Source of the DNA: Bacteroidia bacterium
GTDB lineage: Bacteria > Bacteroidota > Bacteroidia > UBA8524
Length of the DNA: 64,000 nt
Direction of reading: 5' to 3'
NCBI GenBank assembly: GCA_035906255.1
Contig: JAMIFM010000029.1
Location: 50,944-114,943, forward strand
Positions 5,672-21,118 of this stretch are shown in pieces (position 1 is the stretch's first letter; every line of letters begins with the position of its first letter). The translations under genes and the position numbers were made by a program. Below the pieces are notes generated by a model, which saw only the letters and a program-made list of their open reading frames with translations, had not been told where the DNA came from and ran no database searches.

Positions 5672-6300
5672 TGGACGCTGTTTTTGAATTGTGGAACGAG
5701 TACATACTCAAAGAGTGGGAAGGGGGTATTGCCGACCGACCATTGCGCGATGACCCCGGTGGTTTAACAAACAAGGGGGTAACAATTGCCGTTTGGAAGG
5801 AATGGGCTCCCAAGTTATTTGGAATAACAGGCAACGAAACCACCCTGCGCCAACTCACCGAAGCCCAAGCCAAACGGGTGGCTTATGAAATCTACTGGAA
5901 GTTTTACGGCATTGACAAAGTAACCAATCCTGCCATTAAGCTGCTGCTTGCTGACTCAGTATGGGGCGGTGGCGGTTACAGCAGTTTGGGGTACAAAACA
6001 GGCAGTTACGCCCAACGTGCCGCACAAATCAACAAAGACAATCAAGCCAACTCCAACCTGTTTAATGTGCTTGTAAACCGCAGGCTGGCCTATTTGCGCA
6101 GCTTAAAGAACTATGAAGTAAACAAGAACGGTTGGGAAAACCGCGTGTGGAAGGGCGACCCTCAACGCCTTTCATTAACACAGGTGGTAGCCAAATACAA
6201 ACTTAACAACGCCGTAGTAGGTATTAGCTTGGTCAGTGCTATTGCATTGGCATTGGTAGCAAGGGCGGTGTACAAAAAGATTAAAAAGCCAAAGAAATGA
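5671..6300 (+). CDS. GH108-type muramidase / peptidoglycan hydrolase with C-terminal TM anchor
   Basis: N-terminus EWEGGIADRPLRDDPGGLTNKGVT fits the GH108 EGG...D.GG.T..G.T pattern. C-terminal helix VVGISLVSAIALALVARAV followed by a KK-rich tail. Confidence 0.7.
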   Translation: MDAVFELWNEYILKEWEGGIADRPLRDDPGGLTNKGVTIAVWKEWAPKLFGITGNETTLRQLTEAQAKRVAYEIYWKFYGIDKVTNPAIKLLLADSVWGGGGYSSLGYKTGSYAQRAAQINKDNQANSNLFNVLVNRRLAYLRSLKNYEVNKNGWENRVWKGDPQRLSLTQVVAKYKLNNAVVGISLVSAIALALVARAVYKKIKKPKK

Positions 6301-7073
6301 ACCTGCCAAAATTTAAGAACCAGCACGAAGTAAACCAGTATATCCAAACCTTTATCGCCCAAAAAGACGGTAAAGGGGAAGGATATACCACAGAAGACAA
6401 GGAACTGATAGCCCGTTATTCGGGTAGCGGCGGTCTTGCCTCCAAAGGGGCGAAAGCAGACGCAGGGCTACTGTATGAATTTTATACCCCTGATTGGCTT
6501 TGCGGATTAATGTGGAAACTTGCCCTGCATCACGGATATGACGGGGGAACGGTATTAGAACCTTCGTGTGCTACGGGTAATCTTTTTAAAGATGCCCCCG
6601 ATGAAAGTAAATGTGTGGGGTTCGAGACCAATCCCACCACTGCACGTATCGCCCAAATCCTTTATCCCAAAGCAACCATACATACTGGCTATTTTGAAAC
6701 GGCCTTTTTAGACCCCCCGCGTTTTGTCTCTAAACTCAAAGGCAAAACAACGTGGTTGAAAGAATACCCTTTTTCTTTGGTTATCGGCAACCCACCGTAT
6801 GGCCTTTACAAGAACCGTTACAGCAGCTACTTTGATAAAAGACTGTTTAAACAGGTAGAGATATTTTTCATTTACCAAGCCCTACAACTGCTCACTTCGG
6901 GCGGGCTATTGGTGTACTTGTTAAGCCAAAACTTTTTACGTACCGGCGATAAGTACAACAATGCAAAAGAGGCCATCGGAAAATATGCCGACCTGATAGA
7001 TGCTTACCGACTGCCCAAAGTATTTACACATTCGGATGTGCCTACCGATATACTGGTTTTGAAAAGGAAATAG
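6297..7073 (+). CDS. N6-adenine DNA methyltransferase (gamma-type motif order)
   Basis: EFYTP, then AdoMet motif LEPSCATGNLF, then catalytic VIGNPPYG. Confidence 0.8.
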   Translation: MNLPKFKNQHEVNQYIQTFIAQKDGKGEGYTTEDKELIARYSGSGGLASKGAKADAGLLYEFYTPDWLCGLMWKLALHHGYDGGTVLEPSCATGNLFKDAPDESKCVGFETNPTTARIAQILYPKATIHTGYFETAFLDPPRFVSKLKGKTTWLKEYPFSLVIGNPPYGLYKNRYSSYFDKRLFKQVEIFFIYQALQLLTSGGLLVYLLSQNFLRTGDKYNNAKEAIGKYADLIDAYRLPKVFTHSDVPTDILVLKRK

Positions 7074-7076
7074 CAG

Positions 7077-7298
7077 CTAATCGTCAAATATTGAAGTATA
7101 AGGCTTTATAAGGGTGAGGTTTTCTATTTCATCAACTTTTACATATTCCCTTTCCAGTGTAATGTGATTAAAAAACCGAAATGTCTGATTTGAATGGCTG
7201 AACTCTGAAAAGTAAGTCCCTTCGCAGTAAATGCCCTCCTTAGTAAAGAAGCTAATTTCATCAAGATAACTAAGTTCTTTCACTGAAACCTCTTTCAT
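7077..7298 (-). CDS. Hypothetical small protein on opposite strand (moron-like)
   Basis: The only reverse ORF inside the block. AT-rich. Start taken at MKEVSV. No motif. Confidence 0.4.
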   Translation of the reverse strand: MKEVSVKELSYLDEISFFTKEGIYCEGTYFSEFSHSNQTFRFFNHITLEREYVKVDEIENLTLIKPYTSIFDD

Positions 7299-7352
7299 AC
7301 CCCACAAAGATATAGCCTAAAGAAATAGGTAAAACATTTTAAGTTTTTAACA

Positions 7353-7565
7353 ATGACCGACAACCAAATACAACAACTAAGAACCGAAGTGCGCAAGGAG
7401 CTGCAAAACCTTGCCCCTTCCATATATCCATATTTTTCAAAGCTGGCAAAGGATGGCGACGGTTTAAACCAAGCAGAAGCAACGGTAATAGGATACATGG
7501 CAAAAAATGCCGTATCGGTGATGAGTGCCATTGCCCAATTGGAGGGGGAATATGAAGCGGGATAA
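7353..7565 (+). CDS. Hypothetical protein (70 aa)
   Basis: ORF whose end overlaps the helicase start. No motif. Confidence 0.45.
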   Translation: MTDNQIQQLRTEVRKELQNLAPSIYPYFSKLAKDGDGLNQAEATVIGYMAKNAVSVMSAIAQLEGEYEAG

Positions 7566-10500
7566 ACACCACGTATCACAGCATCCCAAGTTTGTAAGGG
7601 GCAGGCTCAAAGCATTTGCACACTTCATTGAGACGCTTCCAGATACCGAGGACAAGCACAGCCCCCGCGAACTTTTAAAAATGGGGTTTGTACACCCCGA
7701 TATTGAATACAACGTATCGGCCAAAACCGCACAGTTCGGGGTCAGCCAATCCGAAGCCCCCTTGACCTTTACAGAACTTACCAATTATTCGACGTGGTTT
7801 TATATACACCCCGAAAAAGTAGCAGGCCATGAAACGATAGTTACCTCGCGTGATTTTCCGATAAAAGTAAACGGCGACCGACAAACCATTACCAATACAA
7901 TTACACAAAACCTGCATATTTCATCCAATACCCCAAAGCTCCAACCCCAACATCCCGATTCTGATAAAATGAAACGACTAAGGTTAGCCACTGCCAAAGC
8001 AAAAGCACTTGCCCTGAAACTTAAACTGGATACCAACGCAATAAACGGGGTAGAAAGCGGTTCCCACATCGGCCAAAAATCGGCTCAAAATCGGCAAAAT
8101 ATCGGTGGTTTTCCGCCCTTAGACCCTGCCGTATATGAACTGCTAAAAACCCTGCCTTATGAAAAGGTATCGGGGTTATCGGGATTAGGTAAGCTAACCC
8201 CCGCCAAAGGCCAAAAACAACCCATGCTTTCCTTCAAAGAAGTGGATGAATTGTACAACGCAGGCATTACTACCGAAGAAAAGCAGGCGTGGGTGTATTA
8301 TCAAAAATCCAAAGGCAATAAAATGTTGGGGTGGGATAAGTACGATACCGGAAAACCCTCACCGCAAAAGATTACGGAATTGATGGAAAAAGGGGCGTTG
8401 TTTTACTTAGGCGGGGAATTATTGCCCTATCCTGTGTACTCCTACGGTAATATCTACGACCGACTGATAGACCTTGAAAAAGACAAAGCAGACATTGTAG
8501 ATACCTTTGGCCAAAAGGCATTTGAAGCCCATAAAAAGGCATTGGATACTGCCAAGCCCAAAGAAATAAGCGTACGTGCCCCCGATATTAAAGACCGTCC
8601 TAAAATCTCGGTGGTTTCAAAGTTTGCCTCAAATGAATTATCGTTTAAGATATACGGGTTAAACGAAGCATTGGTAGATGTTTCCTTACCCTCTGATGCT
8701 GCCAGTGAAGGAATATCCCTGCAACGGGCATTCTCGGCATGGATGAAGAAATTGGACGATACCCAATTTCAAAACGTAACTGCCTACGAAATCCAACGGT
8801 ACTACTTAGAAGCCCGCAATTACCCTCGTGGGATGGAAGAAGCCGAAAAGGAACTTATCGAGCAATACGCACCATTAGAGGGAGAACAACTCTTTTCGCG
8901 TTTCCTCTTTGAAGCCTTAACCGACGAAGACAAAGTAAAATTAGACTTTACGTGGAACCGCCAATACAACGGTCAAAGTTCGGTACAATACCAGCGCATC
9001 CCCGTAGGTTTTGAATGCTCCGCCATATTTAAAACCGCCCCCCTTTCCATTACCCCCATACAACGCGAAGGTATTGCCTTTATGACTGCCGTAGGCAGTG
9101 GCTTAATTGCTTACGATGTAGGGGTAGGTAAAACCATGACCGCCATTATCAATATTGCCAATGCCCTATACAGCGGTAAATGCAAACGTCCCCTAATTGT
9201 AGTTCCTAACCCCACCTATAACAAATGGTTAAAAGAACTTTTCGGGTACACCGATAAAGTTACAGGCCAAGAAATTTCAGGGGTGCTGACAGGAACGGGT
9301 TACCAGCTAAACGAATGGTACAATTTGGGAACGGACGTGCAAGGCAAAATTAACCTTAAAAACCCCGTTGCCGAAAAATCCGTTACCGTCCTTACCTACG
9401 AAGGGTTTATGCGTTTGGGGTTCTCTCAAAAACTAATGGAAGGGCTTTTTGAAGACCTTTCCCATATTATCCACCAAACTGACCCCGATAAAGGGGAAAC
9501 AAAACGGGACATTGCCAAACTCAATCAAAAGCTGGAGGAACTAATCGGCGGCTCTAACAAGGAAACGGTAGTCAATGTGGATGATTTGGGGTTTGACTTT
9601 ATCTGTGTGGACGAAGCCCACAACTACAAAAACGTTTTCAGTTATGTACCCCCCGATGAAGAAGGCAACAAACGCTTCAAATTCGACGGCGGCCAAAGCG
9701 CAAGGGCGCAAAAGATGTTCTTTATCACCAATTACATACAGCGCACCTATGGAGCGAATGTAATGATGCTGACGGCTACCCCTTTTACCAACAACCCGAT
9801 GGAAATCTATTCCATGCTCTCAATGGTGGGGTATGAAAACATGAAAAAGTACGGTGTTCGCAACCTGTACGATTTTATGGAAACCTTTATCAATCAGTCC
9901 TACGAGTATGTAATGACCTATCAGGGGGATATTGCCAAAAAGCACGTGGTAAAATCGTTTAACAACCGTTTGGTGTTGCAACGCTTGATATACAACCACA
10001 TTAACTACAAAACAGGCGAAGAGGCAGGGGTCAAACGACCTTGTAAAATCAACCTGCCCCGCACCACTAAAACGGACGAGAAAACAGGACTGCCCATAAA
10101 GCTACCCCCCAACGAGCAGGTAGTGACTTACCTGCAAATGACCGAAGAGCAGCAAACCAACCAAGCCTTTATTAACGACCATCCCAACAAAGTATCAAGG
10201 CTGGAAAAGCTAAAGGCCATTATGCGCTGTTTGGGCTGGAGCTTGGACAATGCGCTGTCCCCCTTCATCTTTACCAAAGAAACCCCTGCGGATTATAAAG
10301 AGTTTGTAGAGAAAAGCCCCAAAATCATGTACACCGTTGCGTGTATCCGTTCGGTAAAGCAATGGCACGAAAAGCGGAACGAACCCGTTTCAGGACAGGT
10401 TATCTATATGAACCGAGGCAAAGAGTACTTTAAGTACATTGTCGAATACCTTGAAAAAGAACTTGGCTTTAAGCCCTCTGTAAAATACAGGGGGGCAACG

Positions 10501-11751
10501 GTGAGCGAAGTGGAGGTAATCACTTCGGAAATTTCCCAATCCCGCCGTGAAATCATCAAAGATGCCTTTTTGGACGGGGTAGTAAAAGTAATTATCGGCA
10601 CGGCTACTATCCGCGAAGGGATTGATTTGCAGCGCAAGGGGACGGTGCTGTACAACTGCTACCCCGATTGGAACCCCACCGATGCTAAACAGTTGGAAGG
10701 ACGTATATGGCGGCAAGGAAATGAATACGGTTATGTAAGGGTGGTAATGCCCTTAGTTCAGGACTCTATGGACGTCTTTGTATTCCAAAAGCTGGAAGAG
10801 AAAACCCAACGGATTAACGATATATGGTACAGAAGCGACCGAGGCAATGTATTGGATTTGGATAGTTTGGATACCGAAGAGGTAAAATTTGCCCTTTATA
10901 CCAATATTGCGGAACTGGCCAAAATTGCCTTAGAGAAAGAACAGCGAGAACTGGACAACCAGCTCAAAATACTAAAATCCCAAATTGATACGGTCAATAA
11001 CGTTGCAGTTTACAAAGCAGGGCTATTAAAATACCGCGAGGAATGTAACAAATACCCGAATAACTGGCGGATTAGTTTAATGAACTTTTTAGCCAACTCT
11101 GCCGAAAACCAAGCTCCCCTGTGGAGCAAAACGGTAAAGGAAATGGAAGAAATTAGGGAACGTGCTTTTGAGCTTGCCAAAGAAATAGACGCTTACATGG
11201 TGCAGCCCCAACAAACCGACCGCGAACTATTGAACCTGTACCGTAAAGTATCCCCGACTGTTTTTGCCACCCGTTATATCCTAACTATACCGCATTCTAC
11301 TTTTGAAAGCCTTAAAATCTATATGGGTGCTATTGCAAAAGCGGAGAAAACCGTATTTGAGGCAAAAGGGTATTCAATGGATACAGATTTTGAGGTGGTG
11401 AAAGAACAACTGGTGCAAGAGCAGAACCGCATTGAAGAACTTTACGCCCAACTGAAAAGCCCCGAAAATTATTCCCGCATCACCGAGGATATTATCCGCA
11501 AAAAGCAAAAACTAAAAGTAAGCGGTCGTTTACCGCAAACAGCGGCAATGGACTTTGCAGGATTAAACCACCTGTTAGCCTATCAGTTTAATCCTACCGA
11601 CAATGGAAGTTGCATTATCCCGTTGCCCGGTGCTGCACCCAAACCCAAACCCCAAAACACCGAAGCTGATGACAGGGAACGTCGCAAACGCCTTGCGCTT
11701 GCAAAAGCAAAAGCCCTTGAACTTAAAATCAAATTATTAAACGTAGCTTAA
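7552..11751 (+). CDS. SNF2-family helicase-like protein, about 1400 aa, with long unassigned N- and C-terminal regions
   Basis: Walker A DVGVGKTMTAI, motif II CVDEAHNYKN, motif III LTATPFTNNPMEIYS, C-lobe GTATIREGIDLQ and WNPTDAKQLEGRIWRQGN. ATG at 7552 is preferred to the GTG at 7525. Confidence 0.85.
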   Translation: MKRDKHHVSQHPKFVRGRLKAFAHFIETLPDTEDKHSPRELLKMGFVHPDIEYNVSAKTAQFGVSQSEAPLTFTELTNYSTWFYIHPEKVAGHETIVTSRDFPIKVNGDRQTITNTITQNLHISSNTPKLQPQHPDSDKMKRLRLATAKAKALALKLKLDTNAINGVESGSHIGQKSAQNRQNIGGFPPLDPAVYELLKTLPYEKVSGLSGLGKLTPAKGQKQPMLSFKEVDELYNAGITTEEKQAWVYYQKSKGNKMLGWDKYDTGKPSPQKITELMEKGALFYLGGELLPYPVYSYGNIYDRLIDLEKDKADIVDTFGQKAFEAHKKALDTAKPKEISVRAPDIKDRPKISVVSKFASNELSFKIYGLNEALVDVSLPSDAASEGISLQRAFSAWMKKLDDTQFQNVTAYEIQRYYLEARNYPRGMEEAEKELIEQYAPLEGEQLFSRFLFEALTDEDKVKLDFTWNRQYNGQSSVQYQRIPVGFECSAIFKTAPLSITPIQREGIAFMTAVGSGLIAYDVGVGKTMTAIINIANALYSGKCKRPLIVVPNPTYNKWLKELFGYTDKVTGQEISGVLTGTGYQLNEWYNLGTDVQGKINLKNPVAEKSVTVLTYEGFMRLGFSQKLMEGLFEDLSHIIHQTDPDKGETKRDIAKLNQKLEELIGGSNKETVVNVDDLGFDFICVDEAHNYKNVFSYVPPDEEGNKRFKFDGGQSARAQKMFFITNYIQRTYGANVMMLTATPFTNNPMEIYSMLSMVGYENMKKYGVRNLYDFMETFINQSYEYVMTYQGDIAKKHVVKSFNNRLVLQRLIYNHINYKTGEEAGVKRPCKINLPRTTKTDEKTGLPIKLPPNEQVVTYLQMTEEQQTNQAFINDHPNKVSRLEKLKAIMRCLGWSLDNALSPFIFTKETPADYKEFVEKSPKIMYTVACIRSVKQWHEKRNEPVSGQVIYMNRGKEYFKYIVEYLEKELGFKPSVKYRGATVSEVEVITSEISQSRREIIKDAFLDGVVKVIIGTATIREGIDLQRKGTVLYNCYPDWNPTDAKQLEGRIWRQGNEYGYVRVVMPLVQDSMDVFVFQKLEEKTQRINDIWYRSDRGNVLDLDSLDTEEVKFALYTNIAELAKIALEKEQRELDNQLKILKSQIDTVNNVAVYKAGLLKYREECNKYPNNWRISLMNFLANSAENQAPLWSKTVKEMEEIRERAFELAKEIDAYMVQPQQTDRELLNLYRKVSPTVFATRYILTIPHSTFESLKIYMGAIAKAEKTVFEAKGYSMDTDFEVVKEQLVQEQNRIEELYAQLKSPENYSRITEDIIRKKQKLKVSGRLPQTAAMDFAGLNHLLAYQFNPTDNGSCIIPLPGAAPKPKPQNTEADDRERRKRLALAKAKALELKIKLLNVA

Positions 11752-13149: not shown

Positions 13150-13197
13150 AATTAAGTATATTTGCTTTCCTTGTTTAAGGAAAATTGCAATCGACAG

Positions 13198-13225
13198 GCC
13201 GCAGGGATGCGGCTTTTGCTTTTTT
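13198..13225. terminator. Bidirectional terminator hairpin
   Basis: GCCGCA-GGGA-TGCGGC followed by a T-run. Sits between convergent genes. Confidence 0.65.
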
Positions 13226-13841
13226 ATAAATTTTTTAACTTTTCTTTGAGTTCTATTGCTCTTTTCACAAGTGTCCTAATTCTTCCGATTGTTTTTTCCG
13301 GTTCCCCTTGTTTGTCATAAAAACGGTCTAAGGCATTACAGGCAGGGTTGCCTTTATTGCCAAAGTAATGAACAAACGTACTTTTATACAATTCATTTAA
13401 AGATTTGGCATATACAGGCTCAAAAAACTCTATGGTTTTAGAAGTGTTTGCCACCAACTTGCAAGCACAGTCGTATAACCTGAAGTCGTCTTTTTTCCAG
13501 TGCTTTTTATGAAAGAAGTATAAGTCCTCCAAAAGTTCTGCTTCAAATTCGTGAGAAACAATTCCACCTTTATAGAGGCGCTTTATTGAAAAATACAATT
13601 TGTCATTTTTATTATAACGCTTGCTGTAAGAAGAAATTTCTGTATCTGACTTGATTTGTTCTAACAATTCGGCACTGCTTAACGCCTCTACCTTATAATT
13701 CCCCGCAGGTGGTGCAGCATAAAAATCATTATCCAACGCACAGGTGATTGAAAAATCAATACCATCACGGATTTCCAAACGTTCCCCTGTTGTTTTATCG
13801 TAAAAATGGCCGTTTTTGTACGTTAATATTTTTGTTATCAT
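13224..13841 (-). CDS. Hypothetical protein (206 aa), orphan, AT-rich
   Basis: Long ORF. Start taken at MITKILTYKNG (ATG 13841). No motif recognised. Confidence 0.55.
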   Translation of the reverse strand: MITKILTYKNGHFYDKTTGERLEIRDGIDFSITCALDNDFYAAPPAGNYKVEALSSAELLEQIKSDTEISSYSKRYNKNDKLYFSIKRLYKGGIVSHEFEAELLEDLYFFHKKHWKKDDFRLYDCACKLVANTSKTIEFFEPVYAKSLNELYKSTFVHYFGNKGNPACNALDRFYDKQGEPEKTIGRIRTLVKRAIELKEKLKNL

Positions 13842-13959
13842 CTCGATTTCCGCAAATATAGATGAATTACCCCGCAGCATAGCTGTGAGAAATTCTTTAG
13901 ATTAAAACAGGTTGATGAATAAAAATGCTATTAATGTATAGAAAGAAAAGCACTAAACA

Positions 13960-14004
13960 GGGTGTTATCACCCTTGTTCTGAAAGCCCACCCCCGTTACC
14001 TTTG
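13960..14004 (+). promoter_or_regulatory. Operator-plus-promoter head 1
   Basis: GGGTGTTATCACCCTTG (inverted GGTG-N4-CACC overlapping a -33 TTG), a 20-nt spacer, then the -7 box TACCTTTG at 13997-14004. Confidence 0.45.
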
Positions 14005-14010
14005 GTTTCC

Positions 14011-14107
14011 TTTTGATTTTTAGTTGTGCACCTATGTATATACTATCAAATTGCACTTGTTGATGTGTCATCACAAGATTAAAACCGCTCCAATGGGCGG
14101 TTTTTTT
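14011..14107 (+). ncRNA. Candidate short hairpin-terminated transcript 1 (about 95 nt)
   Basis: Lies between promoter head 1 and intrinsic terminator ACCGCTC-CAAT-GGGCGGT plus T7 (14084-14107). Internal hairpin CTTGTTGATG/CATCACAAG. The 5' end is inferred. Confidence 0.3.
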
Positions 14108-14136
14108 GTTTTATTACCCTTGTTCCCTTGTATTTT

Positions 14137-14181
14137 GGGTGTTTTCACCCTTGATAACTCAGCCTTCGCCTTCTATTTTTG
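14137..14181 (+). promoter_or_regulatory. Operator-plus-promoter head 2
   Basis: GGGTGTTTTCACCCTTG, a 20-nt spacer, then -7 box TATTTTTG (14174-14181). Same geometry as head 1. Confidence 0.45.
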
Positions 14182-14187
14182 TCCCGT

Positions 14188-14280
14188 GTGTATTATTTTA
14201 AAACATTGATTTGATAAATTATCTATCCCAAGATATATAATCAAATTTCCACGAAGGCAGCAGGGATGCAGCCTTTTTTA
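14188..14280 (+). ncRNA. Candidate short hairpin-terminated transcript 2 (about 90 nt)
   Basis: Long AT hairpin ATTTGAT...ATCAAAT with inner TATCT/AGATA, then terminator GGCAGCA-GGGA-TGCAGCC plus T6 (14256-14279). The 5' end is inferred. Confidence 0.3.
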
Positions 14281-14310
14281 GTATCGTCTATTCTTTAGCA
14301 CTCAAAAAAT

Positions 14311-14355
14311 GGGTGTTTTCACTGTATTAATTTCTTTAGTATAAAAATACATTTG
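14311..14355 (+). promoter_or_regulatory. Operator-plus-promoter head 3 (degenerate)
   Basis: GGGTGTTTTCAC retains only the left half of the repeat. -7 box TACATTTG at 14348-14355. Confidence 0.3.
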
Positions 14356-14482
14356 CAATACTGCATTTTAATGGCTGTTTGTCTCTTTACCATAAAACGT
14401 TCTTTATACAGGCATAGTAGCAGTATGTTTCTAAAAACAACGTGTTGTTGAACCAGTGTTGGTGTTGTAATTGGTAGTTTAC

Positions 14483-14490
14483 TACCTTTG
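14483..14490 (+). promoter_or_regulatory. -7 promoter box TACCTTTG
   Basis: Exact match to the Bacteroidota TAnnTTTG consensus. TTG candidates lie 15-21 nt upstream. Positioned about 80 nt before the structured RNA. Confidence 0.4.
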
Positions 14491-14567
14491 TGTAAATGAT
14501 AAACTCTTTAGAAACATCAAAACTTAGTCAATAAGGATAACATATAACGTGTCCTGATGATAGTCCC

Positions 14568-14725
14568 TGTTAGGAAATCGGCGAAAATTTAATAACACGG
14601 CGGACTGGCATCCGAGGACATACCCTCAAAAAAGGGTATGTTGCTCAATGCTATTGCCGTGTTGGGTTCTTCGCCGAACCTCCTAACGCAATCAGCAAAG
14701 GGTGCATACCCTTTTTGAGTTTTTA
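14568..14725 (+). ncRNA. Candidate structured RNA / cis-regulatory leader with intrinsic terminator
   Basis: Nested helices: 14569-75/14681-87 (7 bp), 14578-85/14670-77 (8 bp), 14594-602/14655-63 (9 bp), 14606-10/14648-52 (5 bp), apical 14618-26/14633-41 (9 bp). Terminator AAAGGGT-GCAT-ACCCTTT plus T-run at 14697-14725. Class unknown. Confidence 0.45.
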
Positions 14726-15009: not shown

Positions 15010-15822
15010 ATGAAAACCTTTGCAGGTAAAATCATCCTTGCTTCGGCATTCCTTCTATCTGTAATTTCAATCAAAGCACAACGTTGCGGGGTCAATGGCA
15101 TAACCTTTACCCAACAAGCAGGGTTTGGTAACAATAGCCAAATTATTATCGGCGGTTATGGCCAAAATGACGGTGCAATCAATTTTAACTGCTACAGCGA
15201 CAGTTCTGTTTATGGCCGTTCACGTATCTTCAACCGCCCTGTGGGTATGCTACCGCCTGCGGGTAGCCCCGTCCCCACATGGAGTTCACGGGTATTTCAG
15301 GACTTGCCTGCGGGCATCCTACGTATTCAAACCAGTGGGGTGAACAACGCTTGTTATGACTCTGTGAACTGGAACCGTGGGCTTACGATGCACACAAGTG
15401 GCAATGTAGGCATCGGTGCGAACCCCGTTTCGGGTTTTATGCTGGCGGTAAACGGCGGTATCGCCTGTAAAAACGATGTGTTTATCACCCTGACAGGCAT
15501 CACATGGCCTGACTATGTTTTTACACCTTCATACCGCTTAAAACCGCTTGCCCAATTAGAGCAAGAAATTGACAGCTTGGGACATTTACCTGAAATGCCA
15601 TCGGCGCAAACTGTGGAAGCCGAGGGAATGTCAGTAACAGACATTACAACTACCGTAGTTAAAAAGGTAGAAGAATTGACGCTCTACACCATCGACCAGC
15701 AGAAACAACTCGATGCGTTGGCGAAGGACAATGCCGACCTGAAAAAACAAACCGAGAAGTTGCTAAAGCGTAACGAAGAACTAAACGCTTTGGTTGAACG
15801 TCTTTTAAAAGAAAAAGAATAA
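15010..15822 (+). CDS. Secreted fibre-like protein with conserved C-terminal WPDYVF...HLPEMPS...EELTLY coiled-coil module
   Basis: Signal peptide MKTFAGKIILASAFLLSVISIKAQ (the ORF also opens at 14941 and 14980). The C-terminal 105 aa are homologous to the tail of 44038-45174. Confidence 0.7.
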   Translation: MKTFAGKIILASAFLLSVISIKAQRCGVNGITFTQQAGFGNNSQIIIGGYGQNDGAINFNCYSDSSVYGRSRIFNRPVGMLPPAGSPVPTWSSRVFQDLPAGILRIQTSGVNNACYDSVNWNRGLTMHTSGNVGIGANPVSGFMLAVNGGIACKNDVFITLTGITWPDYVFTPSYRLKPLAQLEQEIDSLGHLPEMPSAQTVEAEGMSVTDITTTVVKKVEELTLYTIDQQKQLDALAKDNADLKKQTEKLLKRNEELNALVERLLKEKE

Positions 15823-15844
15823 CTTTGAATAAATAACTTAATCA

Positions 15845-16639
15845 ATGCGTTTCCTTCTTTTTGTTTTGATTGTATTTTGGTTTATTTTAGGTTTAAGTAG
15901 TTGTAAAAAAGATTCTCCAGAAACAATACAGCCTGAACCTACCCCGAAACCGTATTATAATTGCAGGGTTTTGATAAATGACATCCGCGATGAGTTTGGA
16001 AATTTCGTAAAATTTGATACCCATATAAAAATGTTGGTAACAGACTCTATCGGAGATACTGTTTATACGGATTATTACTCAGCAAGTAAGACAGATATAA
16101 CTTTTCCGTTAACCATTGGCACATACACTATTGCAATATTTGATACAACTGAAAACTGGGCACCGTATTACATAAATCATAAGGTCTATCCACCAAGAGG
16201 TGGAGAGCCAAATATGTATACGATAGGGATGACAAAGCAACCAAAGTATAAGTTAAAAGTGGTTTCAACAATAGATACAACGGCAATAATCAATAGGTTT
16301 ACAAAAGAAAGGTATATTATTCTAAATTTAGTATCTACGGATACTGTGAATAAATCCTATTTTATTGCACATATATTTAAGAAACCGCAAAGTTATCCCA
16401 TAAATGACCCTTCAATTTTAACAGGCTTTTATAGTTATATTGAAAATGGCAAGGGTCATGTTTCGTTGAGTCTTTTAGATGCAAGCCATGAATTTATTGC
16501 CAAAGGTGATACATTTTACGTGGTTTTAGTTGAAGCTGCGAATAGTTGGTATTTCTGTTCAAAGACAGAAGGCTTTGGCAATAGGGTTTACTATAACGCT
16601 ACTGGTAAATCAGTACAAAACTTTCAATTCGTAAATTAG
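15845..16639 (+). CDS. Lipoprotein (264 aa), unknown function
   Basis: Lipobox LGLSSC. No counterpart in the paralogous operon. Confidence 0.65.
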   Translation: MRFLLFVLIVFWFILGLSSCKKDSPETIQPEPTPKPYYNCRVLINDIRDEFGNFVKFDTHIKMLVTDSIGDTVYTDYYSASKTDITFPLTIGTYTIAIFDTTENWAPYYINHKVYPPRGGEPNMYTIGMTKQPKYKLKVVSTIDTTAIINRFTKERYIILNLVSTDTVNKSYFIAHIFKKPQSYPINDPSILTGFYSYIENGKGHVSLSLLDASHEFIAKGDTFYVVLVEAANSWYFCSKTEGFGNRVYYNATGKSVQNFQFVN

Positions 16640-16641
16640 CC

Positions 16642-17436
16642 ATGAAAAGTTTAAAATTCTTATTTGTAGTAGTCTTAATAGGTTATTTAATTTTTTTCAA
16701 TACAAGTTGCAAAAAAGAAAAATGCCAAGACCCGACAAACCCTGAATGTGAGAACTACGACCCCTGCTACGGCGAAAAGCCCGTAATGGCAGAAATCGTT
16801 CTCTCGCAGCGGGCAGAACCCAGTTCAAGTGGAGTATTAGGAAAATTATACCTCAATGAAGGAGGAGATGTATTTCCTCGAATGCAAATCCGTTTCCATT
16901 GCCCGCTGGAAGGCGCAAAATATACATGGACATTGGGTGCGGAAACCATTACAGAGCAAACCTTTGAGCGGAATTTTTTTACTGTTCCATACGGCGTTTA
17001 TACAGTGAAACTCATTGTAGAGAAATCCCCCAACACCAATTGTTATCCGAGTGATGACGGCTTCGATACGGTGATAAAAACCTTCGAAATAGTTCCTGTA
17101 TGTGAATTAGAAACTATAGGGATTTTTAAGGGTAAATGGGACGGCGTCCCACAATTGGATAGTTCAGTTATTACATTTCGCTCATATAGAGATGCTTCAT
17201 ACTCAGATAGCTGTTCATTTGGACTTCCTGTATTTACAAACCTTCAGAACAAGGGGGACACATTGTATGGTGCTTATACCTACATATCGAATAAAGAGGT
17301 TGTTAATTACCACCCAGGCCATTTGGGGATAGGTAATCTAAATCTGAATGTAAATCCTCTAACAAAAGTTGTGGTACTTGATTACTACATTGGAACAACG
17401 CACTTTTTATTTAAGGGCAGGAAAATAGCTAATTAA
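16642..17436 (+). CDS. Lipoprotein (264 aa), paralogue of 43215-44030
   Basis: Lipobox FNTSC. Shares YTW..G, C.P.DD and a C-terminal F.G[KR][KR] pattern with the 271-aa lipoprotein. Confidence 0.65.
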   Translation: MKSLKFLFVVVLIGYLIFFNTSCKKEKCQDPTNPECENYDPCYGEKPVMAEIVLSQRAEPSSSGVLGKLYLNEGGDVFPRMQIRFHCPLEGAKYTWTLGAETITEQTFERNFFTVPYGVYTVKLIVEKSPNTNCYPSDDGFDTVIKTFEIVPVCELETIGIFKGKWDGVPQLDSSVITFRSYRDASYSDSCSFGLPVFTNLQNKGDTLYGAYTYISNKEVVNYHPGHLGIGNLNLNVNPLTKVVVLDYYIGTTHFLFKGRKIAN

Positions 17437-17452
17437 CAGAACCAATTACCTT

Positions 17453-20272
17453 ATGAAAAAAATTAAACAACGGCTGCTGTTAGCAGTAGCCTTGGTGTCA
17501 TACATCTGCTCATTCGGGCAAGATTGTGTACGCCTGATACGCACCAAATACGACAGTGCGCAAAACAATGAACTCTCTCCCTTTTTCCCGGGTAAAATCA
17601 ACCCGTGGTTAAACAGCTTTGACTTTGCACGTATAGACAACGGCACTGCATTTCATGACATCGACCTTAACCCGCTTGCAGGATGGATTATTCCCGGAAT
17701 GACGGGCAGCAATTACAAAATGAAAAGCCCGTTCAGCGTAGCTATGGCCTCTGAATACAATTATTTGAGCAGGCCATTTGGAGGAGGTAGCTCGGTGTAC
17801 GATGCAGATATTTGGTGGGAAGACGGATGGGAACTAATGTGGATGAACACAGGTTATTTTCCTAATGGAGACCCCGTTAACGTAGCTGATACAAACCGTA
17901 TTTTGAAGGGTAGTTATGGGTTAGCAAATCCAAGAACTCCATATATTATTTTATACAATCGTTATACGGGGAAGCTGAGAGTGTTTGCTAATTTATTTAC
18001 TGATTATAACAATTATAAAGACATCAGTATGGTATTAAAGCATACTCAGGGGTTAGATAAATCAGGTATATTCAGGCATTTGTTAAATTATGACTATTCT
18101 CTCGACCAACCAAGTAACATAATAGAGGTTCGCTCGTTTAATCACAACGAAAACAACAATACCTTGTGGTGGTCATCAGACTTTCAATTGGGTTATGACC
18201 CTTGTGTTTGTGAAAAGGAAAGCACAATCGATTTTTATTTTTGGGCACGTAAAAATCAAAATATTAATCTATATGGACGGATTGTTCAGCAGGATATGGA
18301 TTTATCGGTATTGGGCAATCCTGACTATAAAAACTTTCTTGCTAATGAAGCAGTAAATAGTGCTGCAAATGGAGCAGAAGGAGGAACACTGCTATTCAAA
18401 CGGTTTGATAGCTTGCTGGTGAAATACGACCGCGAGCTGGAATTATACAATACCCAACTCAACAGTTATAACCATCCGTTCAATTCGACCATGCGCACTA
18501 TCCTTAAATCCGCAAAAGATGGGGTAAGTGCCGCAGGGGGTGCGTTTGTTGCTAAACCATTGGGCGACTTCTTTTTACGCCAACTCGTAAAAATCGACGG
18601 TCCTACTAAGAAAGACACCACCACTGCATCAGGTTGGGCAGAAGAGGTGAACAAAGCTACCAAAGGTCAGTTAGGTAAAGCGTTTGACTTTTTGTCAATG
18701 GCGGCTTTGGGCGATGATTTTACCAAAGAACCGCAACGCCCCTCCATGCCGACCGCTACTTTCAGCGAAATGAAAATTGCTGGGGTAATCTCTGACTCAG
18801 GTTTTGTGAATGTATCGAATTTTTTAACACCCGGCTCATACAAATACCCGCAGCAATTAACTGCATATAATTACCCTGCCTACAATAATGCCGTGGGCTT
18901 ATACGCCCTATTGCGTAAGCCAGCAGTAAAAGGGCTGCGCGACCAGTTTCCAACCCGCACATTGGTATCCCTTGACACGGTGTTAGTCGATACCGTGGTT
19001 ACAGGCAGCATCAAGGTAATAAATATCCGTACCAACGAAGTAAATACCGTTGAGCATCATAACAAACTGTTTTTGAATGTTGCCGAGCCGTTGAAATACA
19101 AACTCAACAAAGCCCTCGATTTTGACATGGATAAAACCAAACTTTACGTGTCATTTTCCGTTGAGTTGGAAAACACCATCCCCAACGGTGACAACTGCTT
19201 TACGCTGCACCTGACCGAAGACAACGAAAACTTTTACCTACGGGACGTTATTCCTGTGCCAGCCACAACATCCTACCAGTTGTTTTATGAAACCCCGTGG
19301 AAAAATATCGAAGACATTGGCGACCATTTCTTCAAGATGGATTTCAAGAATAGCTACGAAGCATTTGGAGTGAGAAAAACATCATTGACGGTGTTTGAGG
19401 GCGACACAACCGTAAATGTGGGTGAACTGAAAGAATGCGTGGATGAAACCCAAGCCTCGTTCAAAATCAAAAAAATCAAAATGAAAGTGGCAGCCGATAT
19501 GTATTTTGACCAGTTGGGGTCGAACGGGTTGCAGAACAATAATTTCCAAACCTTCACCTATCTGTTGTTCGACCCTGCAAATGAAATTAACTGGATTACC
19601 GATGCGCCCGACTCGTCAGATGTAAAACGCAGGAAAGTAGATAATCTGTCATTGACCAACGAAGTGATTGAACCCACCGACCCGTTTGTATTTGAAACCA
19701 ACGGCAATACCTTAATCATCAATGCAAAAAATATCGACCTTAGCGGCACTATTAGTGTGCAATCGGGGTTTGATGCCGTATTGCAGGCTACCGGAAACAT
19801 CACGGGCATCAGCAGCAACACCAGCATTGGCCGTGACATCCGCCTGAAAAACGTCAGCGGATATTCACCTTTCGGTAAAAACTACGAAACCACCGAACAG
19901 GAATTGACCGACTATTGTAAAGACGGTGAAAACGGCTACCAAGCTCATAAAGCTGCTAATAAAATGGCAGAAGAGGCGACATCTGAATCACCAGCCGAAA
20001 CAGCAGAGGAAAAAGAAATAACGGTTTCCGTCTATCCAAACCCTACGCAAAACCGTTTGTTTGTTAGCACTTCGGCTGACGATGATAAAGAATATAGCTT
20101 TGCGGTAATTGATTTAATGGGACGCTCCCTTATTAATGAGACTGTTAGAGGCGCAAACCAACCGCAGTTTGAAATCACCACCGATGCACTGGCAGCAGGC
20201 ACATACCTGCTAATCATTAAAACGTCAGACGGTGAGGTAAACCAAGCACACCGAATAGTTATTCTGAAATAG
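17453..20272 (+). CDS. Large secreted protein with type-A T9SS C-terminal sorting domain (939 aa); N-terminal 850 aa unassigned
   Basis: Signal peptide. CTD VSVYPNPTQNRLFV...AAGTYLLIIKTSDGE...IVILK. Homologous to 40686-43202. Confidence 0.8.
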   Translation: MKKIKQRLLLAVALVSYICSFGQDCVRLIRTKYDSAQNNELSPFFPGKINPWLNSFDFARIDNGTAFHDIDLNPLAGWIIPGMTGSNYKMKSPFSVAMASEYNYLSRPFGGGSSVYDADIWWEDGWELMWMNTGYFPNGDPVNVADTNRILKGSYGLANPRTPYIILYNRYTGKLRVFANLFTDYNNYKDISMVLKHTQGLDKSGIFRHLLNYDYSLDQPSNIIEVRSFNHNENNNTLWWSSDFQLGYDPCVCEKESTIDFYFWARKNQNINLYGRIVQQDMDLSVLGNPDYKNFLANEAVNSAANGAEGGTLLFKRFDSLLVKYDRELELYNTQLNSYNHPFNSTMRTILKSAKDGVSAAGGAFVAKPLGDFFLRQLVKIDGPTKKDTTTASGWAEEVNKATKGQLGKAFDFLSMAALGDDFTKEPQRPSMPTATFSEMKIAGVISDSGFVNVSNFLTPGSYKYPQQLTAYNYPAYNNAVGLYALLRKPAVKGLRDQFPTRTLVSLDTVLVDTVVTGSIKVINIRTNEVNTVEHHNKLFLNVAEPLKYKLNKALDFDMDKTKLYVSFSVELENTIPNGDNCFTLHLTEDNENFYLRDVIPVPATTSYQLFYETPWKNIEDIGDHFFKMDFKNSYEAFGVRKTSLTVFEGDTTVNVGELKECVDETQASFKIKKIKMKVAADMYFDQLGSNGLQNNNFQTFTYLLFDPANEINWITDAPDSSDVKRRKVDNLSLTNEVIEPTDPFVFETNGNTLIINAKNIDLSGTISVQSGFDAVLQATGNITGISSNTSIGRDIRLKNVSGYSPFGKNYETTEQELTDYCKDGENGYQAHKAANKMAEEATSESPAETAEEKEITVSVYPNPTQNRLFVSTSADDDKEYSFAVIDLMGRSLINETVRGANQPQFEITTDALAAGTYLLIIKTSDGEVNQAHRIVILK

Positions 20273-20382: not shown

Positions 20383-20757
20383 ATGAAGCAACTAACTAAC
20401 CGATGGAATGACTTACAAGAACGTGCGAAATCCTTTCTTAATAGCACTGCGCACCAATACTACACAATCGACATCACCACGTTACCTAATCAGGGTGGGG
20501 TGTATTTAATCTGTCTTGTGGACGAAACTCTAAATGAAACCCCTCTTTATATCAACTTCACCAACAACCTCCGCAACGAAATCTTTACCAAGCAGCTTGC
20601 CTACATCTTAACTACCTCTGAAAGTTCCAACGGTACGGCCACCATTTTAAGAAGTAATTGTTACCTTCGTTATGTGGTCGAACCCGACCCAAAGGAGCAA
20701 ATGGCTCTCACCGTGGCCGTCTCTTTGGAGTTAAAACCCCTTTATCAAAACAACTAA
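20383..20757 (+). CDS. Hypothetical protein with weak GIY-YIG-like N-terminal pattern (124 aa)
   Basis: GGVYLICL...PLYINFTNNLRNEI resembles GIYxI...YIG.T.NLRxR. Start moved to 20383 because the longer ORF runs through the terminator hairpin. Confidence 0.35.
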   Translation: MKQLTNRWNDLQERAKSFLNSTAHQYYTIDITTLPNQGGVYLICLVDETLNETPLYINFTNNLRNEIFTKQLAYILTTSESSNGTATILRSNCYLRYVVEPDPKEQMALTVAVSLELKPLYQNN

Positions 20758-20861
20758 GGTGCTGCACCTATGTTGTACCTACATTTTAAAATCAATAAAA
20801 AAACACAGTATAAAGTATTGTAATAAAGATTTTTACAGGTATTTATATAAGTTTATATCAT

Positions 20862-20962
20862 TCTCCTTTAGAGGAAGACGACTTTGGGAACGTCGGGTTA
20901 AGTGATAATTGGGTAGGGGTAAATCAAACCTCCCTCAGTCCCTCCTTGCTTAAGGAGGGAAG
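20862..20962. repeat. Intergenic direct repeat, copy 1 (about 95 nt, hairpin mosaic)
   Basis: GACGACTTTGGGAACGTCGGGTTAAGTGATAATTGGGTAGGGGTAAATCAAACCTCCCTCAGTCCCTCC... is near-identical to copy 2. Confidence 0.75.
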
Positions 20963-21012: not shown

Positions 21013-21118
21013 TCCTTCCCCTGTAGGGAAGATGACTTTGTGAACGTCGGGTTAATTGATAATCGGGTAGGGGGTAAATCAAACCTCCCTCAGTCCCTCC
21101 TGTTTTAGGAGGGGCTAG
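21013..21118. repeat. Intergenic direct repeat, copy 2
   Basis: GATGACTTTGTGAACGTCGGGTTAATTGATAATCGGGTAGGGGGTAAATCAAACCTCCCTCAGTCCCTCC... Begins with hairpin CCTTCCCCTGTAGGGAAG. Confidence 0.75.

Follow-up and report, generated by a model that had tools for sequence, protein, structure and literature searches.

Three copies of a short direct repeat lie within 360 bp of each other in the 64-kb stretch of DNA analysed here (the window), each a short distance upstream of a promoter-like box, and the question raised by this locus is what these repeats, or heads, do. The original prediction offered two answers: that the heads control a set of small RNA genes, or that they form a phage-type immunity or operator region at the junction between a phage-like block and the genes of cassette A. 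The explanation that we favour, with moderate confidence, is that the heads are co-regulated promoters from which two small RNAs (sRNAs) and cassette A would be transcribed.

A repeated element at a fixed distance from the promoter box

The sequence GGGTGTTWTCAC has three matches in the window, at 13960, 14137 and 14311 as originally predicted, and all are on the + strand. With up to one mismatch allowed, 0.67 matches are expected in the window and three were reached by only one of 100 shuffles. The array is identical in three independent assemblies (L001-L003) and is therefore not an assembly artefact. Head 1 (13960-13976, +) consists of GGGTGTTATCAC plus CCTTG, the latter contributing a -33 TTG, and spans approximately -49 to -33 of its promoter, P1. 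Head 2 (14137-14153, +) consists of GGGTGTTTTCAC plus CCTTG, and head 3 (14311-14322, +) of GGGTGTTTTCAC, with the -33 TTG missing. Palindromy of the element is partial, GGGTG-N4-CACCC being present in heads 1 and 2, and an A-tract is found 5' of every head in both the window and the related loci. A degenerate fourth head (GTTTTATTACCCTTGTTC; 14108-14125, +), directly 3' of the first terminator, matches head 1 at 16 of 18 positions and is without GGGTG and CAC; it is probably what remains of the event, a duplication or recombination, from which the unit-1 module arose.

In all three heads the first base of TAnnTTTG lies exactly 37 nt beyond the first G, giving the -7 boxes of P1 (TACCTTTG; 13997-14004, +), P2 (TATTTTTG; 14174-14181, +) and P3 (TACATTTG, or TAATTTTG in L082, a related locus of the metagenome-assembled genome (MAG) GCA_008933805.1; 14348-14355, +). 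Given the base composition of the region, a box at an identical offset in two more heads has a chance probability of about 9e-7. The arrangement TTG-N20-TAnnTTTG is present in heads 1 and 2, and this, together with the box at 14348, agrees with the original description. Transcription start sites (TSSs) were predicted from box position alone, following Flavobacterium TSS maps in which the -7 box occupies -12 to -5 (PMC9723704). They fall at about 14009 for P1, 14186 for P2 (G) and 14360 for P3 (A), and the TTG of heads 1 and 2 is then placed at -35 to -33. A further box without a head, P4 (TACCTTTG; 14483-14490, +), retains TAnnTTTG in L082 and in a second related locus, L010, and is the promoter of a structured leader. 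The predicted start is a purine at P2, P3 and P4 and a pyrimidine at P1.

The consensus of the Bacteroidota primary sigma factor (sigma-ABfr/sigma-A) is TTTG at -33 and TAnnTTTG at -7 (PMC7366714, PMC9723704), and the -33 motif is weak or missing in some Bacteroidota (PMC7366714). The perfect -7 boxes of the three heads with their orthologues in L082, the TTG located 20 nt upstream in heads 1 and 2, and the purines at +1 of P2 to P4 all conform to promoters of this type. The heads differ from them in adding a 12-bp G+C-rich element immediately upstream of -33, which is outside the described consensus, and, in head 3, in having no -33 TTG. Judged by sequence, the heads act as promoter modules that have an upstream cis element in common. 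At class-II activator promoters the activator site is centred near -41.5, as for CRP or FNR, and repressor operators may overlap the -35 region. The head is similarly short, partly palindromic, centred at about -43, abutting or overlapping -33, and repeated at co-oriented promoters. Its half-site spacing, GTG-N4-CAC, is different from that of CRP/FNR sites, and the palindrome is complete in some heads only.

It might instead be proposed that the head is an intrinsic promoter-strengthening element touched by RNA polymerase or a general nucleoid protein, in which case the locus would contain three constitutive promoters with the same RNA products. The A-tract before every head, the location of the element at -49 to -38, just upstream of -33 where UP-like elements act, and the failure to find a regulator gene near the heads would all be in keeping with this. 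However, the element was not found at any other promoter in the 64-kb window, including approximately 43 kb of chromosomal or housekeeping DNA, which argues that it is not a general UP-type element of RNA polymerase. In addition, the core of the head is G+C-rich and partly palindromic, unlike the A/T-rich UP elements, and we regard constitutive strengthening as rather unlikely.

Heads in related loci and their association with cassette A

A search of other genomes, suggested as a check on the original prediction, showed that the repeat does recur: the core GGTGnTnTCAC has 11 matches in 237 kb of related loci. Ten of these are heads, being intergenic, co-oriented with cassette A and accompanied by a -7-like box at +36 to +38. 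The ten heads, from seven contigs, keep the distance from 12-mer to box and their spacer sequences are unrelated, so only the two boxes and the distance between them have been retained. TTG-N20 is found in heads 1 and 2, in head 2 of L082 and in L080, and TTG-N21 in L005; the -33 TTG is missing in head 3, L010, L197 and L198. The boxes of L005, L010, L080, L197 and L198 deviate from TAnnTTTG by one base or a 1-nt shift.

Cassette A (15010-20272, +), the operon that the head promoter is predicted to serve, encodes a signal-peptide protein with a tail-fibre-like C-terminus, two paralogues of about 264 aa and a 939-aa protein bearing a T9SS C-terminal sorting domain. In relatives it is a three-gene secreted-protein cassette. 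It is the only gene content common to all head-bearing loci that extend downstream of the head (the L005 contig stops about 60 nt past its head). In L080, L197 and L198 the first cassette-A gene follows a single head at a distance of 78-110 nt, nothing intervening, and the presence of a lone head directly upstream of the cassette in three simpler relatives suggests that the head is the native promoter element of the cassette. Head 3 appears to be this ancestral promoter. Lone heads of this kind sit on ICE-like elements with ArdC, one of them also with a serine recombinase, and no head was found in two cassette-A loci, L081 and L199.

Wider searches produced no further relatives. A metagenome scan for two heads 145-175 nt apart returned 114 loci, none of them related; most represent one G+C-rich human-gut locus having GGGTGGTATCAC twice about 158-161 nt apart, and several others with many tightly spaced copies (e.g. 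L102, L113) are probably coding tandem repeats. A scan of viral contigs for the 16-mer gave 59 single matches in unrelated coding DNA, at the chance rate and none with a -7 box, and a viral scan for an 18-mer of the leader gave nothing.

Transcripts predicted downstream of the heads

The original prediction was that each head launches a short non-coding unit ending in a hairpin terminator. In sequence this holds for heads 1 and 2, each of which is followed by a predicted unit, within the 50-300 nt expected of a trans-acting sRNA gene, with its own promoter and Rho-independent terminator, but not for head 3, which is followed by no terminator and is better described as a promoter of cassette A. 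Unit 1 (U1; 14009-14111, +) is a candidate sRNA of approximately 100 nt (about 103 nt) with two stem-loops and a strong intrinsic terminator, located by a terminator scan at 14081-14104 plus a U run. Unit 2 (U2; 14186-14284, +) is a candidate sRNA of about 99 nt, comprising a 5' single strand, a stem-loop (14208-14247), the linker UUUCCACGA and a terminator at 14253-14276 plus U6. The scan missed this second terminator because of an internal A-A mismatch, but minimum-free-energy folding recovers it in the window and in L082 alike. Its hairpin is a diverged copy (86% over 22 nt) of T0, a terminator hairpin at 13196-13217 which lies between a convergent ATPase gene (+) and a gene for a 205-aa protein (-) and which is kept in L082. 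The internal hairpins noted at the outset are also present, with fold z scores of -3.6 for unit 1 and -2.4 for unit 2. The two units are weakly paralogous. The fold of U2 recurs in L082, where the two stem-loop substitutions either lie in the loop or create a G-U pair; no homologue of U1 was found in related loci, and it was seen only in the window's own strain.

Unit 3 (U3; 14360-14450, +) is of a different kind. It is 92% conserved, has no terminator and no significant fold (z = +0.8), and is probably the 5' end of a long UTR running into P4, the leader and cassette A. Its ORF shows six non-synonymous changes and one synonymous change relative to L082, and the stop moves. As originally stated, the units contain no convincingly conserved ORF, and no plausible antisense small toxin ORFs were found in them. 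By their form units 1 and 2 resemble small non-coding RNAs that end in a hairpin terminator, and a set of co-regulated small RNA genes is a plausible reading of this part of the array.

Rfam, to which the original prediction had looked for support, gave no matches in the window at gathering scores, and between 13700 and 15000 there were only terminator-driven, sub-threshold matches (E <= 10). No tRNA or tmRNA was found in the region. Duplexes between the sRNAs and the leader, the 5' UTR or the mRNA of the 205-aa protein did not score beyond shuffles, and sequence inspection showed no co-variation for a pairing of the U2 loop with the leader. The closest precedent is RteR of CTnDOT, an element-encoded sRNA of about 90 nt in Bacteroides (PMC7366714), which is likewise a non-coding RNA gene of roughly 100 nt on a Bacteroidota mobile element. 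The units described here differ from it in having no sequence or Rfam similarity, in being two paralogous units with a common promoter element, and in belonging to an element from an environmental (Chitinophaga-like) lineage.

Downstream of P4 lies the structured leader RNA (14509-14725, +), in which a hairpin plus terminator and a 12-bp alternative helix are mutually exclusive. The leader covaries among the window, L082 and L010, with compensatory changes at 11 pairs; the alternative helix is 97% paired and includes three compensatory pairs. It belongs to no Rfam family, and its sequence suggests a riboswitch-like element or attenuator.

Conservation and origin of the array

Comparison with L082 proved informative, as the conservation follows the outline of the units. 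Identity is 96% in U2, 100% in head 3, 96% (24/25) in the spacer of head 3 and 92% in U3 (head 3 and unit 3 together about 93%), in contrast to the inter-unit spacers at 69, 31, 15 and 11% and the four-fold degenerate sites of flanking genes at 47-64%. For this contrast the binomial p is about 1e-14, and for U2 against the four-fold-site level p is about 3e-14. This difference between the units on the one hand, and the spacers and four-fold sites on the other, indicates that the units are under selection, and for U2 it strengthens the suggestion of small RNA genes. The comparison depends on one homologue each of U2 and U3, both in L082, and as U1 has none, covariation support for the sRNA folds is minimal. 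Some of the high identity of U2 and U3 could come from recent recombination in a mosaic element; another segment, 20420-20792, is likewise 92% identical to L082.

The only indel between the window and L082 consists of 943 nt as opposed to 40 nt, and ends exactly at the boundary between head 2 and its -7 box. The 943-nt segment, present in the window and missing in L082 with sharp boundaries, holds the 205-aa gene, head 1, unit 1 and its terminator. L082 has GGGTGGTTTCACCCTTG as head 2 at the corresponding place, followed by an entirely different 20-nt spacer, and homology resumes exactly at 14174, the first position of the P2 -7 box. In prophages and ICEs, moron-type modules are genes or RNAs with their own promoter and terminator inserted between conserved modules, and the 943-nt segment has this appearance. 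It departs from the type in that the promoter element it brings is a copy of the one already resident, and in that its payload is partly non-coding.

Such an arrangement raises the possibility that the heads are simply recombination or module-junction linkers of a mosaic mobile-element family, with the small units as by-products and not functional RNAs. The indel boundary and the swapped spacer of head 2 are what would be expected, and so are the 18-nt direct repeats (head 1 and its degenerate copy) that flank unit 1, the copying of the U2 terminator from T0, and the location of heads between unrelated upstream genes and cassette A, beside the 205-aa gene in three contexts. Yet recombination alone leaves unexplained both the +37 spacing of the box in ten heads and the constant orientation relative to cassette A. 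Furthermore, U2, head 3 and U3 are much better conserved than synonymous sites, in contrast to the decaying spacers, and no recombinase is consistently adjacent. As an account of what the heads do we consider it improbable; as an account of how the array originated it is compatible with the promoter explanation that we prefer.

Candidate regulators and other explanations

If the heads are regulated promoters a factor that acts on them would be expected, and the gene divergent from head 1 is an obvious place to look. This gene (13224-13841, -), the divergent position of which was correctly noted in the original prediction, encodes a 205-aa protein; its start is taken as the ATG at 13841 because the family alignment begins at that Met, and its -7 box is TATATTTG (13853-13860, -). 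All heads are co-oriented, and the distance to the promoter of the divergent 205-aa gene varies between about 50 and 100 nt. The protein has no Pfam, PHROG or NCBIfam match and none to a helix-turn-helix (HTH) family; its AF2 model is confident (pLDDT 91), with no significant match in a PDB fold search. It is also missing from four head-bearing loci, and so is not an obligatory partner of the heads. On these grounds it was rejected as the head regulator. Conversely, none of the loci found in a genome scan for the family (10 with identities of 37-54%, and a fragment of 54 residues at 76%) has a head, which shows that members of the family are not generally accompanied by one. No repressor, Cro-like or HTH gene occurs among the neighbouring genes or small ORFs, and in most head-bearing loci there is no HTH gene within 5 kb. 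Part of the element extends beyond the 64-kb window, and the regulator search covered the window and the related loci.

A regulator of another kind has been described by Hoffmann et al. (2026), in which an RNA-guided pair of nuclease-dead Cas12f and sigma-E (dCas12f-sigma-E) of Bacteroidota hosts requires only a 5'-G TAM and a match of at least 10 nt (optimum 14 nt), transcription starts 46 bp downstream of the TAM, and one guide serves up to seven loci (PMC13472631). The heads could be targets of such a system encoded elsewhere in the genome or element, with a guide pairing to GGTGTTTTCAC beside the 5'-G and RNA polymerase starting a set distance further on. Every head does have a conserved block of 11-14 nt, with G first, 46-49 nt upstream of the predicted TSS, and several copies occur per genome in Bacteroidota. 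On the other hand, no sigma-E, Cas12f-like or guide-like gene was found in the 64-kb window or related loci, and nowhere else in the window does the head sequence recur as a possible guide. The targets described for that system adjoin hth genes and coincide with an ncRNA, and they lack a conserved promoter motif (PMC13472631). The heads, by contrast, have a canonical -7 box kept at +37, and no hth gene or ncRNA overlapping them was found. Matching geometry would also be expected of a class-II activator site, and we think RNA guidance very unlikely. Were it true, two element-borne small RNAs and a T9SS-secreted tail-fibre-like cassette would be activated together, and RNA-guided transcription would extend from susCD and two-component loci to the cargo genes of mobile elements.

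The conserved 12-mer might also be coding, if the heads encoded the N-termini of small hydrophobic peptides (M-G-V-F-T-L...). An ATG or TTG directly precedes GGT GTT TTC AC in head 2, head 3, head 2 of L082 and L010, and the frame and C-terminus (YFCPVCIILKH) of the head-2 ORF are kept in L082, where two substitutions are synonymous. Against this, L080 and L198 have no in-frame start, the only ORF of the L197 head is in another frame, the ORF lengths vary from 11 to 32 aa, and each ORF begins before the TSS predicted for its own promoter. Promoter spacing would demand conservation of frame equally, which leaves the peptides scarcely credible.

The short direct repeats, beside a block with a GH108 lysozyme and a DarB-like helicase, and the junction perceived in the original prediction suggested a prophage attachment or immunity region, with the repeats serving at the boundary of phage and chromosome as arm-type sites for an integrase or as operators for a repressor. 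The probability of this is negligible: L082 and L010 keep the SNF2 block, array and cassette A in synteny, and on ICE-like elements cassette A has a single head in front of it. The three parts travel together as far as about 20,792, where homology to L082 ends and the flanks differ; the heads thus lie some 6.5 kb inside the element and are not att or arm sites. No integrase was found in the part of the element within the window, a BLAST of the region against phages and plasmids gave no match, and viral and phage collections contained no relatives of cassette A or the ATPase. The alternative of an immunity or operator region fares no better, as there is neither an adjacent repressor gene nor, in the 205-aa protein, a recognisable HTH family or PDB fold. 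In such a region the operators would also overlap divergent promoters, one for the repressor and one for lytic genes, whereas the heads all point one way and stand at varying distances from the promoter of the divergent gene.

A model for the array and its significance

The region may be best understood as a tandem array of three paralogous primary-sigma promoters of the Bacteroidota -33/-7 type, with a conserved 12-bp element, composed of an A-tract and then GGGTGTTTTCAC, at about -49 to -38 of each. One trans-acting factor, particular to this mobile-element family and most likely an activator acting at a class-II-like position, would bind there. In simpler relatives a lone head would drive the three-gene secreted-protein operon, cassette A. 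In the window the module seems to have been multiplied, so that heads 1 and 2 would each drive expression of a stem-loop RNA of approximately 100 nt with an intrinsic terminator. U1 and U2 are candidate trans-acting sRNAs. Head 3 would go on serving cassette A in the ancestral manner, as a distal promoter, its transcript passing through the conserved 5' region U3 and then a second promoter and the riboswitch-like attenuator leader. One signal would govern all three outputs. Of this model, the repeats, their set geometry, the recurrence in relatives, the conservation that follows the units and the folds are observed, and the transcription starts, expression, protein binding at the head, the sign of regulation and any target of the sRNAs are inferred.

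Very little has been mapped of the regulatory RNAs, or of the sites for transcription factors, in environmental Bacteroidota and the mobile elements they carry. Should the prediction be confirmed, the array would provide a compact, transferable promoter module, composed of a 12-bp element and a -7 box at a set distance, together with two new sRNAs, borne by the element and under common control with an operon for secreted proteins, and, adjoining them, an uncharacterised attenuator or riboswitch-like leader. The conserved 12-mer offers a handle for capturing the putative regulator, and the whole would constitute a tractable, multi-layer control circuit for T9SS cargo on mobile elements.

Promoter geometry of the array

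Every string quoted in the original prediction is found where it was placed, including the three direct repeats of GGGTGTTWTCAC at 13960, 14137 and 14311, all on the + strand. These three copies (heads 1-3) compare with 0.67 expected in the 64-kb window even with one mismatch allowed, and a decayed fourth copy, GTTTTATTACCCTTGTTC (14108-14125), lies immediately 3' of the first terminator. Exactly 37 nt past the first G of every intact head there is a perfect Bacteroidota -7 box, TAnnTTTG (13997, 14174 and 14348, +), and the chance that the offset of the first head would be repeated in two further heads is about 9e-7, given the local base composition. The TTG reported 20 nt ahead of this box is present in heads 1 and 2 and missing from head 3. 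In flavobacterial TSS maps the -7 box covers -12 to -5 (PMC9723704), which predicts starts at 14009, 14186 and 14360 and would put the 12-mer at about -49 to -38. These promoters, P1-P3, fit the Bacteroidota -33/-7 family (PMC7366714, PMC9723704) but have an extra upstream element that has not been described previously. The array is identical in three independent assemblies and is therefore no artefact.

The surrounding mobile element

The window, which encodes a PorX-like regulator and proteins with T9SS sorting domains, belongs to a Bacteroidota genome; local genes have homologues in Chitinophaga, Niastella and Spirosoma. A left block (GH108 lysozyme, N6 methylase, DarB-like SNF2 helicase and ATPase genes), the array and the secreted-protein operon, cassette A (15010-20272, +), are syntenic in L082, a MAG relative, and in L010, and homology with L082 stops only at ~20,792, beyond which the flanks differ. 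On this synteny the array is placed ~6.5 kb inside one mobile element and not at a phage/chromosome junction. To the right of ~21 kb the window is housekeeping DNA throughout. Just beyond the right element end, two ~90-nt direct repeats (20873-20959 and 21027-21114), which are 154 nt apart and 86-91% identical, resemble intergenic repeats of the REP/MITE type; the motif TTCCCGCCTGCACGGGATGACGG occurs near them and also beside the L082 element. Within the left block, an N6-adenine methylase ORF (6297-7073, +) is followed by a 450-nt gap and a 1408-aa SNF2 helicase (7525-11751, +) with PHROG matches to DarB-like antirestriction proteins, and 6297-11751 may represent one methylase-helicase fusion that has been split or frameshifted. 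The PorX-like T9SS regulator (26767-28323, -) is a PglZ-domain response regulator encoded on the chromosome ~6 kb from the element, and no evidence ties it to the heads.

Heads in related loci

The core GGTGnTnTCAC was found 11 times in 237 kb of related loci. Ten of these matches are intergenic heads that keep the box spacing (a -7-like box at +36 to +38), and all ten point towards cassette A. Three ICE-like loci (L080, L197, L198) have one head apiece, which follows the stop codon of the upstream gene by ~20 nt and lies 78-110 nt ahead of the first cassette-A gene, with no RNA between head and cassette; L197 and L198 carry ArdC, L197 additionally a serine recombinase, and the neighbourhood in L080 has Xre-type HTH genes only. 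In L010 a single head is followed by a second promoter and a structured leader, while L082 has heads 2 and 3. Cassette A occurs without a head in L081 and L199. In L005 one head adjoins a version of the 205-aa gene discussed below, at 75% identity; this contig stops ~60 nt beyond the head and so falls outside the shared-gene comparison, in which the three cassette-A genes are the only ones common to all head-bearing loci that extend downstream of the head. Head-to-box spacers are unrelated in sequence among loci, yet the boxes are kept and an A-tract precedes every head, and for this reason we regard head and -7 box as a conserved promoter module, the ancestral job of which appears to be driving cassette A.

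The cassette-A module of three genes is conserved, and five of the seven other loci have mobile-element genes (SNF2/DarB-like helicase, ArdC, serine recombinase, TrwB-like) on its flanks. It encodes proteins of ~279 aa (signal peptide; C-terminal part resembling tail-fibre and endosialidase-chaperone proteins), ~260 aa and ~925 aa (T9SS sorting domain), to which the window adds a further paralogue of ~264 aa (15845-16639).

Through chance resemblance, the metagenome scan also matched a G+C-rich locus from the gut that is unrelated (L083, 790-959, and ~70 similar human-gut metagenome contigs). In this locus GGGGGTGGTATCACTACCC stands at two places ~158-161 nt apart, in both cases with TTTTTCGGC-TT-CTGC ahead of it, and the two copies may represent another repeated operator-like pair.

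Predicted transcribed units and their conservation

Unit 1 (14009-14111, +; z = -3.6) and unit 2 (14186-14284, +; z = -2.4) each fold into stem-loop structure with an intrinsic terminator; on folding, unit 3 has neither a significant fold nor a terminator. The proposal of co-regulated small RNA genes is thus supported in part, with two hairpin-terminated candidates and no terminated unit at head 3. An Rfam search, also proposed at that stage, gave no match in the window, and a tRNA search found none. Units 1 and 2 are probably diverged paralogues, since both contain the 21-nt motif ATATAnTAnTCAAATTnCAC in the 3' arm of the first stem. The terminator hairpins after the ATPase gene (13196-13217) and in unit 2 (14255-14276) are copies, AGGCCGCAGGGATGCGGC versus AGGCAGCAGGGATGCAGC, which suggests that unit 2 was put together from a gene end that had been duplicated. 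The closest functional precedent is RteR of CTnDOT, a ~90-nt sRNA carried by a Bacteroides conjugative transposon (PMC7366714), with no sequence relationship to the units.

Identity between the window and L082 was computed per segment across the array: head 2, 94%; its spacer, 15%; unit 2, 96%; the interval from unit 2 to head 3, 69%; head 3, 100%; its spacer, 96%; unit 3, 92%; 14451-14482, 31%; the box of the head-less promoter P4, 88%; 14491-14508, 11%; and the leader, 78-93%. At four-fold degenerate sites in the flanking genes, identity reaches only 47-64%, and against the highest of these figures the binomial p is ~1e-14 both for unit 2 and for head 3 with unit 3. Conservation so unit-shaped, on the scale of 30 nt, points to selection acting on both the promoter boxes and the transcribed units. 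Recent exchange alone would not be expected to give this shape, although the element is mosaic and another segment is 92% identical. Of the two substitutions inside the unit-2 stem-loop, one lies in the loop and the other turns an A-U pair into G-U.

Alternative explanations

It is possible to see the heads as recombination linkers between modules. Positions 13231-14173 of the window take the place of 40 nt in L082 and comprise the 205-aa gene, heads 1 and 2 (the latter with its spacer), unit 1 and the decayed head; on the right, the breakpoint coincides exactly with base 1 of the P2 -7 box. Together with the 18-nt repeats on either side of unit 1 and the ATPase-gene terminator copied in unit 2, this boundary shows that heads mark module boundaries, and these features plausibly explain the origin of the array; however, they leave the fixed promoter geometry and the conservation unaccounted for.

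There is a low probability that the heads are targets of RNA-guided transcription of the dCas12f-sigma-E type, in which a 5'-G and a guide match of at least 10-14 nt set the TSS 46 bp downstream (PMC13472631). Heads begin at a similar distance, 46-49 nt upstream of the predicted TSS, but the window and the related loci lack dCas12f, sigma-E and a guide, the array has neither an hth gene nor an ncRNA overlapping it, and the heads conserve a canonical -7 box, unlike the reported targets.

We reject a peptide-coding role for the heads, as frames, starts and lengths are inconsistent among loci. Start codons do precede some heads and the head-2 ORF frame is kept in L082; against this, L080 and L198 have no in-frame start, the L197 head is crossed by a single ORF, which uses another frame, ORF lengths range from 11 to 32 aa, the ORFs start upstream of their own predicted TSS, and of the seven changes in the unit-3 ORF six are non-synonymous, with the stop shifted as well. 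The phage immunity/operator reading originally offered finds no support, and att or arm sites are very unlikely, the array being internal, with neither repressor nor integrase nearby and nothing related in viral and phage collections.

The 205-aa protein, encoded divergently from head 1 (13224-13841, -), was considered as regulator of the heads and rejected, having no family or PDB fold match and its gene being missing from four head-bearing loci. Members of its family share invariant H12, C125, C127 and H158 and occur on mobile elements, where the SNF2 block, integrases or type I R-M genes adjoin them. Pfam, PHROG and NCBIfam models gave no hit, and the confident AF2 model of the protein (pLDDT 91, pTM 0.82) has no match at E < 0.1 in a PDB fold search; it may represent a new fold, or else an accessory gene of the anti-defence type.

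Proposed regulation and the structured leader

Returning to the promoter module, we infer that the three primary-sigma promoters are regulated, in one sense or the other, by one factor recognising the A-tract-GGGTGTTTTCAC element centred near -43, most likely a protein from the host or from part of the element outside the window. P1 and P2 would give ~100-nt terminated RNAs, candidate sRNAs, while the P3 transcript would run through conserved unit 3 and past the head-less promoter at 14483 into a ~215-nt leader, downstream of which lies the secreted-protein operon.

This leader (window 14509-14725, +; L082 4541-4755, +; L010 412-622, -) sits between the head array and cassette A, has its own conserved TAnnTTTG promoter at 14483, and is found only in loci that also carry the SNF2 block. 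It has no Rfam match. Compensatory changes occur at 11 base pairs across the three sequences. Pairing of a 12-bp alternative helix (14629-14640/14705-14716) would exclude both the hairpin at 14619-14640 and the terminator at 14697-14714, and all three helices covary among the window, L082 and L010. The leader is a candidate for a new riboswitch or attenuator, and this riboswitch-like element may be more novel than the head array.
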